Part shown: positions 22,251 through 35,726 of the stretch, one piece after another | How positions within the stretch are numbered: the stretch's first letter is position 1 | Layout of the letters: each line of letters starts with the position of its first letter | Virus record (IMG/VR): IMGVR_UViG_2778261634_000009 | Span: 1-38,423 of that record | Length of the DNA: 38,423 nt | Strand: one strand, 5' to 3' | From: a virus | Taxonomy: Duplodnaviria; Heunggongvirae; Uroviricota; Caudoviricetes | The notes under the pieces: generated by a model | Databases searched by the model: none | Told to the model about the DNA's origin: nothing | The model's input: the letters and a program-made list of their open reading frames with translations, nothing else | Program-made: the position numbers and the translations under genes

Positions 22251-23162
22251 ATGGACCAAACCACCGACATTCAGGCTTCTGAAGAATTAACCCTGCCCGG
22301 CAATCATGCAGCGGCATCTGCTGATGGCTTAGTTGTCGATAATGCCAACGACAACGCAGGTCAGGAAGAAGGCTTCGAGATTGTCCTGAAAGACGATGAG
22401 AAACCAAAACAAGACCCGGCAACTAATGCTGAATTTGCCCGTCGCCGCATCGAACGCAAACGCCAGCGTGAGCTTGAGCAGCAGATGGAAGCGGTTAAGC
22501 GTGGAGAATTGCCGGAGCACCTGCGGGTGAACCCTGAGTTACCAAAACAACCAGACCCTAACGATTATCTTTCCGAAGATGCGCTGGCTAAGTACGACTA
22601 TGACCAGAGCCGCGCACTGGCTGCCTTCCAGCAGGCAAACAGTGAATGGCAGATCAAGGCTATGGACGCACGAAGCCAGGCTGTCGCCGAGCAGGGTCGC
22701 AAAACTCAGGAGTTCACCCAGCAATCAGCGCAATACGTCGAGGCAGCCCGTAAGCACTACGACGCAGCGGAAAAGCTCAATATCCCTGACTATCAGGAGA
22801 AAGAGGATGCATTCATGCAACTGGTGCCGCCAGCAGTCGGTGCCGACATCATGCGCCTCTTCCCGGAGAAATCCGCCGCTCTCATGTATCACCTTGGTGC
22901 TAATCCTGAGAAAACACGCCAGTTGCTGGCGATGGACGGGCAATCCGCGCTGATTGAACTCACTCGACTGTCAGAACGTTTAACTCTCAAGCCTCGAGCC
23001 AAACCTGTTTCAGAAGCCCCGCTACCTGATGAACCCATTCAGGGACACGCTGTTGCTGCAAATATATCTGCGATTGAAAAGCAGATGGAAGCGGCAGCAA
23101 ACAAAGGGGATGTAGAGACATACCGCAAGCTCAAGGCGCAACTGAATAAAGGAATTCGATAA
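22251..23162 (+). CDS. scaffolding protein (P22 gene 8 type)
   Basis: 303-aa ORF, same length as P22 gp8, helical and charged; between portal and coat. Confidence 0.8.
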
Positions 23163-24457
23163 TGGCATTAAATGAAGGTCAACTGGTCACGTATGCTCTG
23201 GATGAAATCATCGAAACCATCCAGAACCTGACGCCAATGGCGTCCAAAGTGACAAAATACACCCCTCCGGCAGAATCCATGCAACGTTCAAGCAACACCG
23301 TGTGGATGCCTGTTGAGCAGGAAGCGCCAACTCAGACTGGCTGGGATTTAACTGGCAACGCTACCGGTATTCTGGAACTGTCCGTGAAATGCAACATGGG
23401 CGATCCGGATAACGATTTCTTCGAGCTTCGTGCAGATGACCTGCGTGATGAGCGTTCTTACCGTCGCCGCATCCAGGCATCCGCCAAAAAACTGGCGAAT
23501 AACATTGAGTCAGCAATTGCCAAACAGGCAACTGAAATGGGCTCACTTGTTGTTCACGATACCCGCGCAATTGGTCCATCTACTGGCCTGTCTGGCTGGG
23601 ATTTTGTGTCTGATGCAGAGCGCCTGATGTTCTCCCGTGAGCTAAACCGCGATATGGGCATCAGTTACTTCCTGAACCCTGACGATTACCGCAAAGCAGG
23701 CCGCAATCTTGTAGATGGTGACATCTTCGGGCGCGTTCCTGAAGAAGCGTATCGCAACGGTACTATTCAGCGTCAGATTGCTGGCTTTGATGAAATTCTT
23801 CGCTCACCGAAACTTCCGGCAGTTACCAAGTCAACCGCTACTGGTGTAACTGTGTCTGGTGCGCAGAAGTTTAAGCCGCAGGCATACACCCTTGATACCG
23901 ATGGTAACAAAGAGAACGTCGACAACCGTGTTGCAACGGTGACCGTATCCTCCACCACCGGATTTAAGCGCGGCGACAAAATCAGTTTCACTGGTGTGAA
24001 ATTCCTGTCTCAGATGGCGAAGAACGTGCTAACTGATGATGCGACTTTCTCAATCACCCGTGTGATCGATGGTACTCACATCGAAATCACGCCGAAACCG
24101 ATTGCACTGGATGACGCGTCACTGACAAAAGAAGAGAAGGCTTACGCTAACGTAAACACCTCTCTTGCTGATACCACTCCGGTAAACGTTCTGAACGTGG
24201 CAACAACCACCGCTAACGTGTTCTGGGCTGATGACTCAATCCGTCTGCTGTCTCAGCCGATCCCGGTAACCCATGAACTGTTTGCTGGCATGAAAACGTC
24301 TTCCTTCAGCATTCCTGGCATTGGTGTTAACGGCATCTTCGCAACGCAGGGTGATATCAACACTCTGTCTGGTAAGTGCCGTATTGCTGTGTGGTATTCA
24401 GCATGTGCTGTACGACCAGAGGCAATTGGTGTTGGTCTGCCTAACCAGACCGCGTGA
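23162..24457 (+). CDS. major coat protein (P22 gene 5 type)
   Basis: 431-aa ORF directly after scaffold; size and position as P22 gp5 (430 aa). Confidence 0.9.
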
Positions 24458-24500
24458 TAACCAGAGGGAGCTTCGGCTCCCTTTTCTATTGGAGATACCA

Positions 24501-25094
24501 ATGAGCGTAATGATTTTTCAGGCTGGCGGAGATACCAAAATCTGGGGACGCAAGCTGAAAACGAAAACCGTTGATCCTGATGATGTAGCTGTGCACTTAG
24601 CAAATGGCTGGTATAAGCACCCTGACGATGTTCCTGATGATCCTCTTGTTGGTGATCAAATTGGGAGTGTTGGCGGAGGTGAAACTTCCCCAGTTGATAT
24701 GGGCGAAGTGTCCGACGGTTATCACACTTTTAACGAGCTTTACGCTCACCGAGTGCGCCTCTTCTCATCGCTGATGCATGCTTACGCTGAGCTTTCGTGG
24801 TGGTCTCGCAAACACAGTGACGGTGAAGAGTGGGATGGCTGGATCATTGCTGGTATCACCACTCCAGAAGGCGAAATCACTTATCACCTACCTGTTGAAG
24901 AAATCGAGTTCCTTCCTGAAGGTACTGAGCTTGAGTTCGGGAAAGAGTGGGATGGTCATGAAGCAAATGATGTTCTTGGACGACTCCTGAGTTTGCGTCC
25001 GGCTATTGCAGAGCCAGAGCCAGAAGAAAAACAGCGTAAAAAGCCTGGTCGAAAACCTAAGGCGGCAGCAGATGAACCTGACAACGAAGGGTGA
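24501..25094 (+). CDS. hypothetical protein between coat and head-tail adaptor genes
   Basis: Start at internal Met with GGAGA upstream, within track ORF 24321..25094 (whose 5' extension overlaps the coat gene); acidic 197-aa product; 3' end overlaps gene 4 start. Confidence 0.5.
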
Positions 25095-25572
25095 TTTAGT
25101 TCTTGCGGCATTACGTAAGCTCGGTGTGGCATCAAATGCCACGTTAACCGATGTCGAACCGCAGTCCATGGAAGATGGCGTCAACGACCTTGAAATGATG
25201 ATGGCTGAATGGCTTGGCGGTGATGTGTCACCTGGGATCAACGTTGGCTACATTTTTGCTGATGCAGATGTCGCTCCAGATCCTGGCGATGAGCACGGCT
25301 TATCAAATAACGCTATAAATGCCGTCATTTTCAACCTTGCCTGCCGCATTGCTCCAGATTATGCGCTGGAAGCGTCTGCAAAACTTATAACCACTGCCAG
25401 ATACGGGAAAGAGCGACTCGTCAAACTGTCTGCAATGGACAGAGCAAAAGCTGCTAAATGTAAGTCCGGTTATCCAAACCGTATGCCTGTTGGTAGCGGT
25501 AATCAGTTGGCGAAGTGGAACGGTTGGAATTACTTCCACCGGAAGGAACCTTGCGATAACGGGAGCGAATAA
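25072..25572 (+). CDS. head-tail adaptor / tail accessory factor (P22 gene 4 type)
   Basis: 166 aa from internal Met; [43 protein letters not shown] matches P22 gp4 as remembered. Confidence 0.8.
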
Positions 25573-26991
25573 ATGCCGATTCAGCAACTTCCGCTTATGA
25601 AAGGTGTCGGCAAAGACTTCCGAAACGCCGACTATATCGACTATCTGCCAGTGAATATGCTGGCAACCCCCAAAGAAATCCTTAACAGCAGCGGATATCT
25701 TCGTTCATTCCCGGGCATTGCCAAACGTTCTGATGTGAACGGCGTATCGCGCGGCGTCGAGTACAACATGGCGCAGAGTGCTGTTTATCGCGTGTGTGGC
25801 AGCAAGTTGTATAAGGGCGAAAGCGAAGTCGGTGACGTCGCCGGAAGTGGTCGCGTATCAATGGCGCATGGTCGAACATCTCAGGCTGTAGGCGTTAATG
25901 GTCAACTGGTCGAGTATCGCTATGATGGCACGGTTAAAACAGTCTCAAACTGGCCTACAGACAGCGGATTCACGCAGTATGAGTTAGGTTCGGTTCGTGA
26001 CATTACGCGCTTACGTGGGCGTTATGCGTGGTCAAAAGACGGCACTGATTCATGGTTTATCACTGACCTTGGAGATGAATCGCACCCTGACCGATACAGC
26101 GCACAATATCGCGCAGAATCGCAGCCTGACGGCATCATCGGCATCGGAACATGGCGAGACTTCATCGTCTGCTTTGGTTCATCGACGATTGAATATTTTT
26201 CCCTGACTGGTGCAACCACTGTTGGTGCCGCTTTGTATGTCGCCCAGCCATCGTTGATGGTGCAAAAAGGAATCGCCGGAACCTACTGCAAAACGCCGTT
26301 TGCTGATTCGTATGCGTTCATCAGCAATCCGGCAACAGGTGCGCCGTCTGTTTACATCATCGGCTCCGGTCAGGTATCACCAATCGCCAGCGCGAGCATT
26401 GAGAAAATACTACGCTCCTACACTGCTGATGAACTGGCTGATGGCGTGATGGAATCGTTGCGGTTTGATGCTCATGAGTTGCTGATTATTCACCTGCCGC
26501 GCCATGTTCTTGTTTACGACGCATCTTCAAGCGCCAATGGTCCGCAATGGTGTGTGCTGAAAACAGGCTTGTATGACGATGTGTACCGCGCTATCGACTT
26601 CATTTACGAAGGCAATCAGATAACGTGTGGCGATAAGCTGGAATCGGTGACCGGGAAATTGCAATTCGATATATCTTCACAATACGAAAAACAACAAGAG
26701 CATATTTTATATTCCCCTCTAATAAAGGCTGATAACGTTTTAATAAATGACCTTGAATTAGAAACATCTGGCGGCGTGTGTGATAGAATAGATAGAATAT
26801 TTATATCAGCCACTACAGATGGGATTAATTACGGTCGTGAGCAAATGGTCGTATTACAAAAACCATTTGTATATGACAATCGCGTTTTATGGCGAAAAGT
26901 TGGTCGAGTTAGACGTCTCATTGGATTTAAATTCAGAGTTATTGCAAAAGGTCCTGTTACATTATCAGGCCTTTCTATTCGTGTAACATAA
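25573..26991 (+). CDS. tail hub protein (P22 gene 10 type)
   Basis: 472-aa ORF, same length as P22 gp10, following gene 4; last roughly 110 codons visibly AT-rich. Confidence 0.8.
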   Translation: MPIQQLPLMKGVGKDFRNADYIDYLPVNMLATPKEILNSSGYLRSFPGIAKRSDVNGVSRGVEYNMAQSAVYRVCGSKLYKGESEVGDVAGSGRVSMAHGRTSQAVGVNGQLVEYRYDGTVKTVSNWPTDSGFTQYELGSVRDITRLRGRYAWSKDGTDSWFITDLGDESHPDRYSAQYRAESQPDGIIGIGTWRDFIVCFGSSTIEYFSLTGATTVGAALYVAQPSLMVQKGIAGTYCKTPFADSYAFISNPATGAPSVYIIGSGQVSPIASASIEKILRSYTADELADGVMESLRFDAHELLIIHLPRHVLVYDASSSANGPQWCVLKTGLYDDVYRAIDFIYEGNQITCGDKLESVTGKLQFDISSQYEKQQEHILYSPLIKADNVLINDLELETSGGVCDRIDRIFISATTDGINYGREQMVVLQKPFVYDNRVLWRKVGRVRRLIGFKFRVIAKGPVTLSGLSIRVT

Positions 26992-27012: not shown

Positions 27013-27546
27013 ATGTTAAGTGAAAACGCAAAAGATATCGAAGGATATGAAGGACTGTACGCCATCACTAATGATGGTAGAGTTTACTCGCATTCAAGAG
27101 TAAATTTGAGGGGGCGTCTTATTAAGGGGAGGTGGCTGAAGCATAATCATAACGTAAATGGATATAAGTATGTGTGCTTATATAAGGATGGCGTAAAAAA
27201 GAACATACTAATACATAAGCTTGTTGCATCTCACTTTGTCGGTGGATTTGCTGAAGGGTTACAGGTTAATCATATAGATGGTGATAAGTATAATAATAAC
27301 TATCTAAATCTTGAATGGGTTACTCCATCAGGAAACATCTCACACTCATATGGATTGGAATCGAGAGGTAATGTAAAAGGAGAAAGGAATGGTAATTCTA
27401 AAATATCTAATGATGATGTCATAAAGATAAAAGAAATGGTTGCCAATGGATTTCCTCAGTGTGAAGTTGCTAAATTATTTGGAATTCACAATTCAAAGGT
27501 TAGTAGAATTGTAAATGGCAAGGCATGGAGGCATGTTAATGGCTGA
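27013..27546 (+). CDS. HNH homing endonuclease (NUMOD4 N-terminal motif plus HNH_3 core, C-terminal HTH-like region)
   Basis: [16 protein letters not shown] is the NUMOD4 signature; [11 protein letters not shown]...[20 protein letters not shown] is the HNH core; AT-rich; inserted between tail genes 10 and 26. Confidence 0.8.
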
Positions 27547-28492
27547 TTCGAATCTCAATGTGCCGGTAATCATTCAGGCTACACGGCTCGATACATCAAT
27601 ACTTCCACGCAATATCTTCTCTCAGTCGTATCTGCTTTACGTTATTGCACAGGGCACTGATGTTGGTAACGTAGCTAACAAGGCCAACGAGGCCGGACAG
27701 GGCGCTTATGACGCACAAGTCAGGAACGATGAGCAGGATGTCACCCTTGCAGACCATGAATCCAGAATTGAAGCTGCTGAAGCAACTATCATCAATCATG
27801 AACATAGAATTGCAGCAGCGGAAAGCACTCTTGCAGATCATGAAACAAGGATTACGGCTGCTGAAACAGAGCTGGCTGATCACGAGACGCGAATTGCTGC
27901 CAATGAATCTGAGTTAGCAGATCATGATGCGCGCATAACTCAGAATACAACCGATATCGACGCACTTGATACCAGGCTCACAGCGGCAGAGGGGAGTATT
28001 TCGACGCTACAAAGCACAGTTGGTGATCACTCAACAAGAATATCTGCGCTTGAGTATGCCACCACGCGCAAGAAATCAGAGGTTGTTTACTCAGGGGTAT
28101 CGGTAACAATTCCGACAGCGCCTACCAACCTTGTTAGCCTGCTGAAAACGCTCACGCCGTCATCCGGCACGTTGGCACCATTCTTCGACACCGTTAACAA
28201 CAAGATGGTTGTGTTCAACGAGAACAAAACCTTGTTCTTCAAGCTGTCGATTGTCGGGACGTGGCCCAGCGGAACCGCCAACAGGTCAATGCAGCTAACC
28301 TTTTCCGGCTCTGTTCCTGACACGTTGGTCAGCAGTCGTAATGCGGCGACAACAACCGACAACATCCTGTTAGCTACGTTCTTCAGCGTGGATAAAGACG
28401 GATTTCTTGCCACAAATGGCAGTACGTTAACCATTCAGTCAAATGGGGCGACGTTTACTGCCACAACCATCAAGATAATCGCGGAGCAGTGA
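27539..28492 (+). CDS. tail needle (P22 gene 26 type) with divergent C-terminal knob-like domain
   Basis: N-terminus [43 protein letters not shown] matches P22 gp26; central heptad repeats ADHE(S/T)RI; C-terminal about 120 aa unlike P22, Thr/Ser-rich beta-type sequence; start overlaps HNH stop. Confidence 0.85.
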
Positions 28493-33690: not shown

Positions 33691-34227
33691 TCAAACAACC
33701 CACCAGTTTGCCTGATTGGATACCAGCCTTGCAGTTTTTATGGAATTAATTATGCCATGCTCAAGAGCCTTGTTAGCATCCAAAATGGTCGAGTCTGCTA
33801 TCAGGGATGCCCACCTAATATGGGTTCCGATGTCGATATTGAACGTCTCAACGAAGCGATCAAGATCGTTATCGAGGCATTTCCCGTACTCTCTCAATCT
33901 GGCATGGTCGGCGGCTGGGGTGGCAAAGCCCCATAATAGAGGATGTAACAGGAATCTTGATAATGGGTTTGCGAAACGCTCTGAGCCAGCCAGGAAAACG
34001 ATATTAGCTATGGATTCAACATTGCTTATGTTGTGAGTTCTAACGGTAACAGGGAGTGACTTAAGAAAGTTATACGCAGTAAAACCAGCGGCAGTTTCCC
34101 CTCCCTGACTTGATATATGGATATTTAATTCAGTTGCGCCTTGAGATAATGCGGTGAGACAGTGGTTCTGAAGTTGCCCAACAGTGGCGGTGTTAACGGG
34201 GCATAAGAAATGAATTGTGTGCAGCAT
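33691..34227 (-). CDS. ClpP-family (S14) serine protease-like protein, stand-alone
   Basis: 178-aa ORF; IHISSQGGETAAGFTAY and SIANIVFLAGSERFANPLSRFLLHPLLWG align by eye with E. coli ClpP YINSPGGVITAGMSIY and [31 protein letters not shown], conserving the catalytic Ser and His positions; start codon overlaps the mnt stop (TAATG). Confidence 0.75.
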   Translation of the reverse strand: MLHTIHFLCPVNTATVGQLQNHCLTALSQGATELNIHISSQGGETAAGFTAYNFLKSLPVTVRTHNISNVESIANIVFLAGSERFANPLSRFLLHPLLWGFATPAADHARLREYGKCLDNDLDRFVETFNIDIGTHIRWASLIADSTILDANKALEHGIINSIKTARLVSNQANWWVV

Positions 34228-34802: not shown

Positions 34803-35726
34803 ATGAAAAGTATAGCAACAGCAGTATCTACTATCAATGTACCATTCCACGGCGCAGAGCTTTATGTTGTCAATCACAACGGCGAACCGTATACCCCAAT
34901 GAAACCTATCGTTGAGGGAATGGGTATGGATTGGGCTTCACAGTTTACAAAGTTAAAACAAAGATTTGCTAAAGGTATTGTGGAAATCGCAATACCTTCA
35001 GTTGGCGGTGTGCAGACCATGATTTGCCTTGCTTTACGTAAACTGAATGGCTGGTTGCAAACCATCAGCCCTAACAAAGTCCGCCCTGAAATCCGCGACA
35101 ATGTAATCCAGTATCAAGAAGAGTGTGACGATGTGCTATACGAGTACTGGACTAAAGGCCATGTAGTTAACCCACGCAAAGCTAAAAAGGCGTTGCCTGG
35201 TAAAATCACTACTGAACAGCAGGAAGCCATTAAACAACTCGTCATGAGTCGCGGTCAGTCTCTGCCAAAAGAAAAACAGGCTAAGGCGATGATCACCATG
35301 TGGTCGTCACTGAAATCCCATTTTGGATGTTCGTACAAAGAAATCAGTGAGGAGCAGTTTACCGAAGCACTGTCACTTGCAGCTCGAGTTCCGCTTGAAG
35401 GTGAGTTCATCGGCAAACAAGAGAAGAAAACCAACGAGCTTTCTGCAAAAGAAGCAAACAGCCTTGTATGGTTATGGGATTATGCCAACCGCTCACAGGC
35501 ATTATTCCGCGAACTGTATCCGGCGCTAAAACAAATTCAATCGAACTATTCCGGCAGATGTCATGACTGCGGTTATGAGTTCTCCCGTATTATCGATATA
35601 GCGAGAGATGTTTTAATCAATCACACACGAGATGTTGATATCAATGAGCCAGACGGACCAACGAATCTTTCCGCATGGATGAGACTTAAGAATAAAGAAT
35701 TACCTCCTTCAGTTCATAACTACTGA
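34803..35726 (+). CDS. ant: antirepressor Ant
   Basis: 307-aa ORF immediately downstream of arc, size and position as P22 Ant. Confidence 0.85.
   Translation: MKSIATAVSTINVPFHGAELYVVNHNGEPYTPMKPIVEGMGMDWASQFTKLKQRFAKGIVEIAIPSVGGVQTMICLALRKLNGWLQTISPNKVRPEIRDNVIQYQEECDDVLYEYWTKGHVVNPRKAKKALPGKITTEQQEAIKQLVMSRGQSLPKEKQAKAMITMWSSLKSHFGCSYKEISEEQFTEALSLAARVPLEGEFIGKQEKKTNELSAKEANSLVWLWDYANRSQALFRELYPALKQIQSNYSGRCHDCGYEFSRIIDIARDVLINHTRDVDINEPDGPTNLSAWMRLKNKELPPSVHNY

Follow-up and report, generated by a model that had tools for sequence, protein, structure and literature searches.

The gene between the coat gene and gene 4

The window analysed here, by which we mean the whole stretch of 38,423 nucleotides of the IMG/VR record IMGVR_UViG_2778261634_000009 (Caudoviricetes), belongs to a P22-like (Lederbergvirus-type) E. 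coli phage or prophage and keeps the P22 gene order. Starting with the head genes, it encodes a gp3-type small terminase, the large terminase, a 721-aa portal, a 303-aa scaffold and a 431-aa coat protein. The coat gene is followed by a small gene, called the slot gene in the following, behind which come a gp4-type adaptor, a gp10-like protein, an Sf6-type needle, the ejection proteins, an antirepressor and the tailspike. The features around the slot gene are:

23162-24457, plus strand: coat (gp5-like) gene, the upstream neighbour; 431-aa ORF; in relatives the annotation reads coat or major capsid protein
24463-24484, plus strand: post-coat stem-loop; GC-rich 9-bp stem with a UUCG loop, then a T-rich stretch
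24491-24495, plus strand: GGAGA Shine-Dalgarno sequence, recognised by its sequence, 5 nt before the ATG
24501-25094, plus strand: slot-gene ORF, 197 codons and TGA; orf69/orf186 family, long (WDGH) form
24501-24635, plus strand: N-terminal orf69-type module, aa 1-45 (phrog_1175, AF2, alignment with P22 orf69)
24636-24701, plus strand: acidic, Gly-rich, disordered linker, aa 46-67 (pLDDT, variant codons)
24702-24995, plus strand: WDGH domain, aa 68-165 (PF25311, AF2, conservation)
24996-25091, plus strand: C-terminal tail, aa 166-197 (pLDDT below 50; DNA shared with short-form phages)
25072-25094, plus strand: 23-nt overlap of the slot gene with gene 4 (head-tail adaptor, 25072-25572)

The original prediction, made from the letters of the window, had placed an extra gene for an acidic 197-aa protein in the interval 24458-25094, with its own GGAGA ribosome-binding site and with its last 23 nt overlapping the start of gene 4. 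The reading frame is indeed there, running from the ATG at 24501 to the TGA at 25092-25094, and its product of 197 aa has a mass of 22.0 kDa, a pI of 4.68 and 39 D+E against 20 K+R. The GGAGA sequence lies where it was expected, 5 nt before the ATG, and the overlap is confirmed by the start codon (ATG 25072) of the gene 4 homologue, which was identified by the Pfam profile P22_Tail-4. The end of the interval was also right. Its beginning, 24458, directly follows the coat stop codon, so that the interval includes a 43-nt spacer with the hairpin in addition to the gene.

The stretch of 51 nt which holds this hairpin (24455-24505) has a folding energy of -19.2 kcal/mol (z = -3.5), and none of 200 shuffled sequences was as stable. 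The same hairpin sequence is found in phage APC_JM3.2, and at this place a terminator is annotated in Emek and a stem_loop in P22. The hairpin is a leaky terminator or an RNA-stability element of the late operon. A consensus scan found no sigma-70-like promoter upstream of the slot gene, and the GC content of the gene (0.49-0.50) is the same as that of its flanks. The possibility that the gene is a moron was therefore rejected: there is no promoter-like site and no compositional shift, and the sole hairpin is the conserved post-coat one upstream. At the other end, translation of the slot gene is probably coupled to that of gene 4, with which it overlaps by 23 nt in the window and by 17 nt in P22 and Emek.

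Short and long forms of the slot gene

The protein consists of two folded parts and two disordered ones. In the AF2 predictions, which were made for the single chain, the N-module (aa 1-45) forms a beta-hairpin and a helix with a pLDDT of about 78-89, the linker falls below a pLDDT of 50 for aa 48-63, and the tail is disordered as well (pLDDT below 50). The tail carries a (GAGCCA)2 repeat at 25011-25022, which is translated as (EP)2, and a K/R/P-rich stretch, KKPGRKPKA. The N-module is marked by the motif G-W-x-x-H-P, and its consensus M..M.Y..G...VWG....K.V...E....L..GW..HP, together with the K/P-rich tail with its acidic end, is present in the window protein. Two PHROG families match, phrog_3769 over the full protein and phrog_1175 over the first 44 residues (E = 1.9e-14); both are families without an assigned function. 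With a profile of the N-module 421 proteins were found, and the 120 matches listed are stand-alone proteins of 44-90 aa.

One of the proteins of this type is P22 orf69, whose gene lies in this slot as well, behind the post-coat stem-loop and ahead of gene 4, and which has neither the linker nor the WDGH domain. Its 69 residues consist of an N-module, MKIAIYKPGGSIMVWGV...DGWLDHPSKLL, followed by a tail, KPRKGRKPKAVSDADKD. It aligns with residues 1-45 of the window protein and with its tail, and Emek orf186 and an 88-aa protein of APC_JM3.2 could be aligned in the same way. P22 orf69 and the E. coli short forms of 74-104 aa share with the window gene the slot, the upstream hairpin and ribosome-binding site, the type of tail and the overlap with gene 4. 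Judged by these alignments, the slot gene is the P22 orf69 frame with a WDGH domain inserted, rather than an addition to the P22 plan. The original prediction of an extra gene is therefore to be corrected, as P22 has orf69 in the same slot and only the central WDGH domain is extra.

The long form is known from Salmonella phages. Phage L (orf186), ST104 (ORF54), g341c (gene 6) and Emek (gp06) carry, in the slot between coat and gene 4, proteins with the same three-part architecture as in the window. These homologues, to which one in BTP1 can be added, are about 62% identical to the window protein over aa 1-167. The window gene differs from its counterparts in L, ST104, g341c and Emek in being another allele with a different linker, a longer tail with (EP)2 and an overlap of 23 nt instead of 17 nt. 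In the genome paper of phage L it is stated that orf186 is of 'detailed function unknown' and breaks the synteny between L and P22 (PMC8022706). The genome paper of epsilon34 does not mention the slot gene, and a literature search for P22 orf69 returned only unrelated ORF69s. What is new in the window is an allele of the known but uncharacterised P22 orf69 / L orf186 family which carries the Pfam domain WDGH.

To see how the two forms are distributed we collected, with gp4 as the anchor, 80 viral contigs in which this protein is at least 98% identical, and 75 of them could be assessed. The short form occurs in 62 of these 75 relatives and the long form in 13, and a disrupted gene was not met in any. 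The number of (GAGCCA)n = (EP)n repeats varies between 1 and 15. The slot gene is dimorphic, the short form consisting of N-module and tail and the long form having the WDGH domain in addition.

The nearest sequenced phages (APC_JM3.2, IME10, HZ41, Bas106, Dewey and Louie) match the window in the flanks only. Their slot protein is short: the N-module is followed by an (EP)n repeat and then by a tail identical to that of the window. In the comparison with such short-form phages (APC_JM3.2) the identity ends at the start codon and returns at the repeat around position 25009; the two forms are therefore swapped, as alleles, through recombination. In the E. coli short forms the N-module represents another allele than in the window, with about 35% identity as estimated by eye on the alignment and not computed; the difference between long and short in this lineage is therefore one of allele replacement and not of a simple deletion. 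The recombination takes place in the conserved hairpin and ribosome-binding site on the left and in the repeat and tail on the right.

The gene is widely maintained. A search of the protein databases gave 1,384 homologues at E <= 1e-3, and one cluster of 98% identity comprises 1,929 member sequences from E. coli. A search of 5,426 complete E. coli genomes found the full-length DNA in 42 of them, and no DNA-level copy was found among the phage records of a collection of 50,697 genomes. In 20 distinct close alleles from viral contigs we counted the synonymous and non-synonymous variant codons, which were 3 and 1 in the N-module and 9 and 4 in the WDGH domain; the two folded parts thus add up to 12 and 5, while the linker has 0 and 8. 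Such counts indicate purifying selection on the folded N-module and WDGH domain and drift of the disordered linker. RefSeq/PGAP labels some copies, including identical ones, as two 'partial' pseudogene fragments. Both of the 'pseudogene' copies that we checked have the intact frame of 197 codons, and six of the seven substitutions fall on third codon positions. The pseudogene reading was rejected, because the PGAP 'partial' calls fall on intact frames.

The WDGH domain and its partners

The central part of the protein, for which no domain had been recognised in the original prediction, is a full match to the Pfam family WDGH (PF25311): aa 68-165 cover model positions 1-97 of 97, and the score of 134.8 bits (E = 1.3e-39) exceeds the gathering cut-off of 27. 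Nothing else was found in the window protein by Pfam at E <= 1. All signatures of the family are present: SDGYHTF..LY.HR (S71-R84), W.S..H.DG (W100-G108), YH.P (Y128-P131) and WDGH (W150-H153), spelled in the window protein among others as WWS..H.DG, TYHLP and WDGH. The columns of these motifs are 85-100% conserved among 150 WDGH representatives.

Modelled alone by AF2, the WDGH domain gives a confident fold (pLDDT 93.7), a compact alpha-beta-beta-beta-alpha-alpha arrangement of about 100 aa. The search of the full-length model against the PDB with Foldseek returned no match at E < 1. In the viral structure library BFVD the matches were WDGH family members only, all of them uncharacterised. 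A sequence search of the PDB yielded nothing but noise (E >= 0.24), including a meaningless stretch of PARG. The NCBIfam scan had no match, and no family of the PADLOC defence models was hit at E <= 1.

The family is very widespread. The WDGH profile found 4,521 proteins at E <= 1e-3 among 1.84 billion cluster representatives (50%-identity clusters), and the domain occurs in 198 records of sequenced phages of many morphotypes and hosts. The carriers include A511-like myoviruses of Listeria, large Bacillus phages and temperate phages of pneumococci, staphylococci and lactococci, further the Klebsiella Lastavirus, a cyanophage and actinophages. In 150 cluster representatives, 38 of about 100 WDGH columns are at least 85% conserved, among them five His, four Asp, two Arg, three Tyr and three Trp, and this conservation spans phages of Proteobacteria, Firmicutes, Actinobacteria and Cyanobacteria. 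In the same 150 representatives the net charge of the domain is negative throughout and ranges from -1 to -14. Members of PF25311 are mostly stand-alone proteins of 110-160 aa or have other N- or C-terminal modules, whereas the domain of the window sits in the orf69 frame within a late operon. Literature searches for 'WDGH' and 'PF25311' gave nothing relevant and no published function, and when ten long WDGH proteins with several domains were compared with the PHROGs, the only matches were to families of unknown function.

Among the 150 WDGH representatives six are fused to Sequestin (PF21825), three to the restriction-alleviation domain Lar and one to DUF551. Tad2 and Sequestin are experimentally proven sponges of Thoeris signals (bioRxiv 10.1101/2025.07.12.664507), and Sequestin was discovered by the criterion 'fused to known sponge' in the same study, which reports it in 639 of about 25,000 phage genomes. 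Given this rarity, a WDGH fusion rate of 4% would by our own reckoning mean a strong enrichment. In the supplements of that preprint (10.1101/2025.07.12.664507) the WDGH motifs do not occur. A protein with Tad2, WDGH and Sequestin in a single chain exists as well; its gene lies between the lysis genes and the terminase, hence in a late operon, and the phage that carries it has a P22-type portal. In a Klebsiella-type phage a WDGH-Sequestin gene directly adjoins a Tad2-like gene.

The genetic neighbourhood was surveyed in 27 diverse viral loci, with three genes on each side. The commonest neighbours are DnaB-type helicases (6), glycosyltransferases (6) and dCMP deaminase (2); thymidylate kinase, dUTPase, RecT and a PDDEXK-like domain protein (DUF3799) were also found. 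Sponge domains were met once each: one neighbour has the Acb2/Tad1 hairpin, another is Tad2-like, and a Sequestin domain is fused to one of the scanned WDGH proteins. In one further locus the WDGH gene lies among orphan Dam, N4/N6 and C5 methyltransferases, and in the Klebsiella phage SopranoGao within a run of small early genes. In the loci examined outside the P22-like phages WDGH was not part of structural modules.

Possible functions of the slot protein

Because of its place in the late operon, the gene had been expected to code for a protein with a virion-associated or assembly-related function. This conclusion from placement does not hold, since the WDGH domain is missing in 62 of the 75 relatives and is found in early, replication or accessory contexts in unrelated myo-, sipho- and podophages of Listeria, Bacillus, Streptococcus and Klebsiella, and since the sponges Tad2 and Sequestin, fused to WDGH, also occur in the late operon of a P22-type phage. 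The slot protein is more likely to be a counter-defence or small-molecule-handling protein than a part of the virion. While the observation behind the original prediction was confirmed, its interpretation is only partly supported.

We regard it as a serious possibility, though one short of probable, that the gene encodes a putative late-expressed counter-defence module which acts on a nucleotide-derived signal. Its transcription would be part of that of the late operon, with the polymerase reading through the post-coat hairpin, and coupling of its translation to gene 4 is probable. The WDGH domain may then be an autonomous and portable phage module, not a virion component, which binds or, more likely, chemically converts a small universal ligand. 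With about a third of its positions fixed across four phyla, the domain is more likely to have a small molecule as its partner than a host protein that evolves fast. With regard to the company WDGH keeps in fusions and neighbourhoods, the best candidate for this ligand, and the most probable one, would be an immune signal of the host that is derived from a nucleotide, as in systems of the Thoeris or CBASS type. [quoted passage not shown]

The more detailed version is more doubtful and is put forward only tentatively: WDGH may represent a family with a fold of its own, very widespread (at least 4,500 clusters of 50% identity), which neutralises a nucleotide-derived immune signal, either by metal-assisted catalysis or with a high-affinity pocket, and which was grafted into the orf69 frame. 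The invariant set of His, Asp, Tyr and Trp together with the acidic charge inclines us to a metal-assisted enzyme or a pocket of high specificity, and the acidic charge speaks somewhat against a classical sponge with a basic pocket.

Known sponges and degraders (Tad1, Tad2, Acb1, Acb2, Acb4, Acb5, Sequestin and Lockin) are, like WDGH, small, phage-borne and sporadic. The pockets of the known sponges are positively charged, whereas WDGH is acidic, and no similarity in sequence or fold between WDGH and these sponges and degraders was found by Pfam, PDB or Foldseek. The window protein is not found by the profiles of Tad1, Tad2 (PF11195), Acb2, Acb4 (PF13876), Sequestin (PF21825) or Lockin, and neither Pfam nor PDB searches revealed the folds or motifs of the degraders Acb1 (2H-phosphoesterase), Apyc1 (MBL) and Acb5. 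The His contexts in WDGH are Y-H-T-F and Y-H-L-P, unlike the H-x-T/S-x of 2H enzymes. The T4 protein TadIV-1 was set aside on its published description as a sponge with a distinctive fold of its own.

Several points argue against a counter-defence function. Fusions of the defence type are found in only about 4-6% of the representatives, most of which stand alone or have partners of unknown function. The many neighbours from replication and nucleotide metabolism fit a housekeeping nucleotide enzyme equally well. Furthermore, the proposal assigns no role to the orf69-type frame, which is kept without WDGH in most of the relatives.

WDGH could also be an enzyme of nucleotide metabolism or replication support, for instance a small metal-dependent hydrolase acting on the nucleotide or cofactor pool, which merely rides in the orf69 frame. 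The helicase, dCMP deaminase, thymidylate kinase, dUTPase and RecT-type neighbours in the 27 loci are consistent with this, an invariant set of His, Asp and Glu in an acidic protein would suit a metal enzyme, and conservation across phyla would fit a universal metabolite. However, the domain is dispensable and sporadic even among near-identical phages, and in the 150 representatives it is fused to sponges and to a restriction-alleviation domain and never to metabolic enzymes. In the P22-like phages it would be expressed with the late operon, too late for replication, and the structure searches gave no likeness to known folds of nucleotide enzymes. We consider such an enzyme unlikely, though not far-fetched.

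A virion-associated or assembly factor, that is a gpFI-like chaperone of packaging and head completion or a protein packaged with the DNA, would put the activity into the N-module and the basic tail and make WDGH a lineage-specific embellishment. The order of coat gene, slot gene and head-tail adaptor gene parallels lambda E-FI-FII, and lambda gpFI is, like the slot protein, small and acidic and encoded between the major capsid and head-tail adaptor genes. The architecture of gpFI is bipartite, and the slot protein resembles it in having a charged, flexible (EP)n linker and a tail rich in K, R and P. The slot gene is also intact in all 75 relatives and presumably coupled in translation to gene 4. 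However, homology to gpFI is not detectable and was rejected (BLASTP E = 12; hhalign probability 0.5%), which leaves only the synteny. In addition, WDGH is missing in P22 and in 62 of 75 relatives with the same coat and gp4, and it is found outside of structural modules in unrelated phages. To our knowledge, no product of orf69 or orf186 is among the listed virion proteins of P22 or L. For the long protein with its WDGH domain a role of this kind seems quite improbable, while the orf69-type frame of N-module and tail might still have one.

Equally improbable is a host-takeover or anti-defence factor which targets a protein, whether by inhibiting a conserved protein of the host or by mimicking DNA with its acidic surface. 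In favour of this, all domains are acidic, and WDGH is phage-borne, accessory and sporadic; it is fused to Lar in three of 150 representatives, and orphan methyltransferases are found in its neighbourhood. But with about 38% of near-invariant positions, including His, Tyr and Trp of the buried type, conserved in phages of four phyla it would be atypical for inhibitors or DNA mimics, and the AF2 model is a compact alpha/beta fold of about 100 aa and not of the elongated shape of a mimic. That the ORF is non-functional, either a chance frame or a decaying remnant which carries ribosomes to gene 4, has a negligible probability: in spite of the PGAP labels and of the many relatives without the WDGH part, the 13 long and 62 short alleles are all intact, as are the 'pseudogene' copies, and purifying selection, the 134.8-bit Pfam match and the domain pLDDT of 93.7 speak against it.

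Taken alone, the slot gene is an ordinary and already catalogued hypothetical gene of P22-like phages. Two problems in its annotation could be corrected, namely the pseudogene labels in RefSeq on intact copies and the relation of orf69 and orf186 by domain insertion, which was missing from the annotation. The WDGH gene is a lead, because it represents a large and strongly conserved domain family of phages without a solved structural relative, and the repeated fusion to Tad2 and Sequestin places this family among the candidate inhibitors of signalling immunity. Phages with the slot alleles with and without WDGH make natural near-isogenic pairs. Existing phages suited to a comparison are L and P22, or the E. 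coli prophages on one side and IME10 and Bas106 on the other. As P22-like phages are tractable and the short and long alleles occur naturally in near-identical backgrounds, the question is directly testable.

Start regions of the slot gene and gene 4

The start of the slot gene, the 197-codon reading frame located between the coat gene and gene 4, lies just downstream of the post-coat stem-loop and is itself part of a second predicted structure:

24487-24503, weak second hairpin (predicted fold)

According to this prediction the AUG of the slot gene pairs with part of the GGAGA Shine-Dalgarno sequence, and the hairpin, situated 3' of the post-coat stem-loop, could modulate translation initiation of the slot gene. 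At the other end of the gene, the frame of gene 4, which encodes the head-tail adaptor gp4, is open 5' of its ATG as far as a TTG at 25006 (25006-25071), a codon within the stretch of the slot gene that encodes the protein's tail. The N-terminus of P22-type gp4 starts at ATG 25072, and the upstream opening is probably incidental.

Repeat variation and annotation of the slot gene

The same tail-coding part contains a repeat:

25011-25022 in the window, and in the viral contigs L092-L170, GAGCCA hexanucleotide repeat encoding (Glu-Pro)n

Among 75 contigs whose gp4 is at least 98% identical the copy number is hypervariable, ranging from 1 to 15, and its changes are always in frame. Long and short slot-gene alleles, which are those with and without the WDGH domain (PF25311), respectively, also have their right-hand recombination junction at this repeat.

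Intact copies are found in two E. coli RefSeq chromosomes:

L009, 1742-2137, slot-gene locus
L010, 542-937, slot-gene locus

PGAP labels these intact 197-codon copies as two pseudogene fragments ("incomplete; partial in the middle of a contig"). Because both reading frames are uninterrupted, this label is an annotation artefact.

Additional genes in the window and WDGH fusions

Two further reading frames of the window have recognisable domains:

27013-27546, +, homing-endonuclease-like ORF, 177 aa (domain matches to NUMOD4 and HNH_3)
33691-34227, - (opposite strand), Clp-protease-like ORF, 178 aa (PF00574, E = 4e-12)

The former forms an insertion with the gp10-like gene (25573-26991) on its 5' side and the Sf6-type tail-needle gene (27515-28492) on its 3' side, and its last 32 nt overlap the start of the needle gene; the annotation of the closely related phage APC_JM3.2 has no such ORF between the genes for the DNA stabilization protein (gp10-like) and the tail protein. 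The Clp-protease-like ORF lies in the variable region, with the ejection-protein genes on one side and the antirepressor gene (34803-35726) on the other, and may serve an accessory function or one related to superinfection.

WDGH domains also occur beside or fused to the proven immune-signal sponges Tad2 and Sequestin:

L008, 5071-6870, Tad2-like gene and WDGH-Sequestin fusion gene
L004, 6001-6798, Tad2-WDGH-Sequestin triple fusion

The L008 fusion gene is located directly downstream of a gene whose 293-aa product contains a Tad2-like domain. The triple fusion, from a phage with a P22-type portal, is flanked by lysis genes and terminase. In the related Klebsiella phage SopranoGao, WDGH is part of a 329-aa protein and has another partner on its N-terminal side. 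Taken together, these loci suggest that modules are shuffled at a hotspot for accessory genes.
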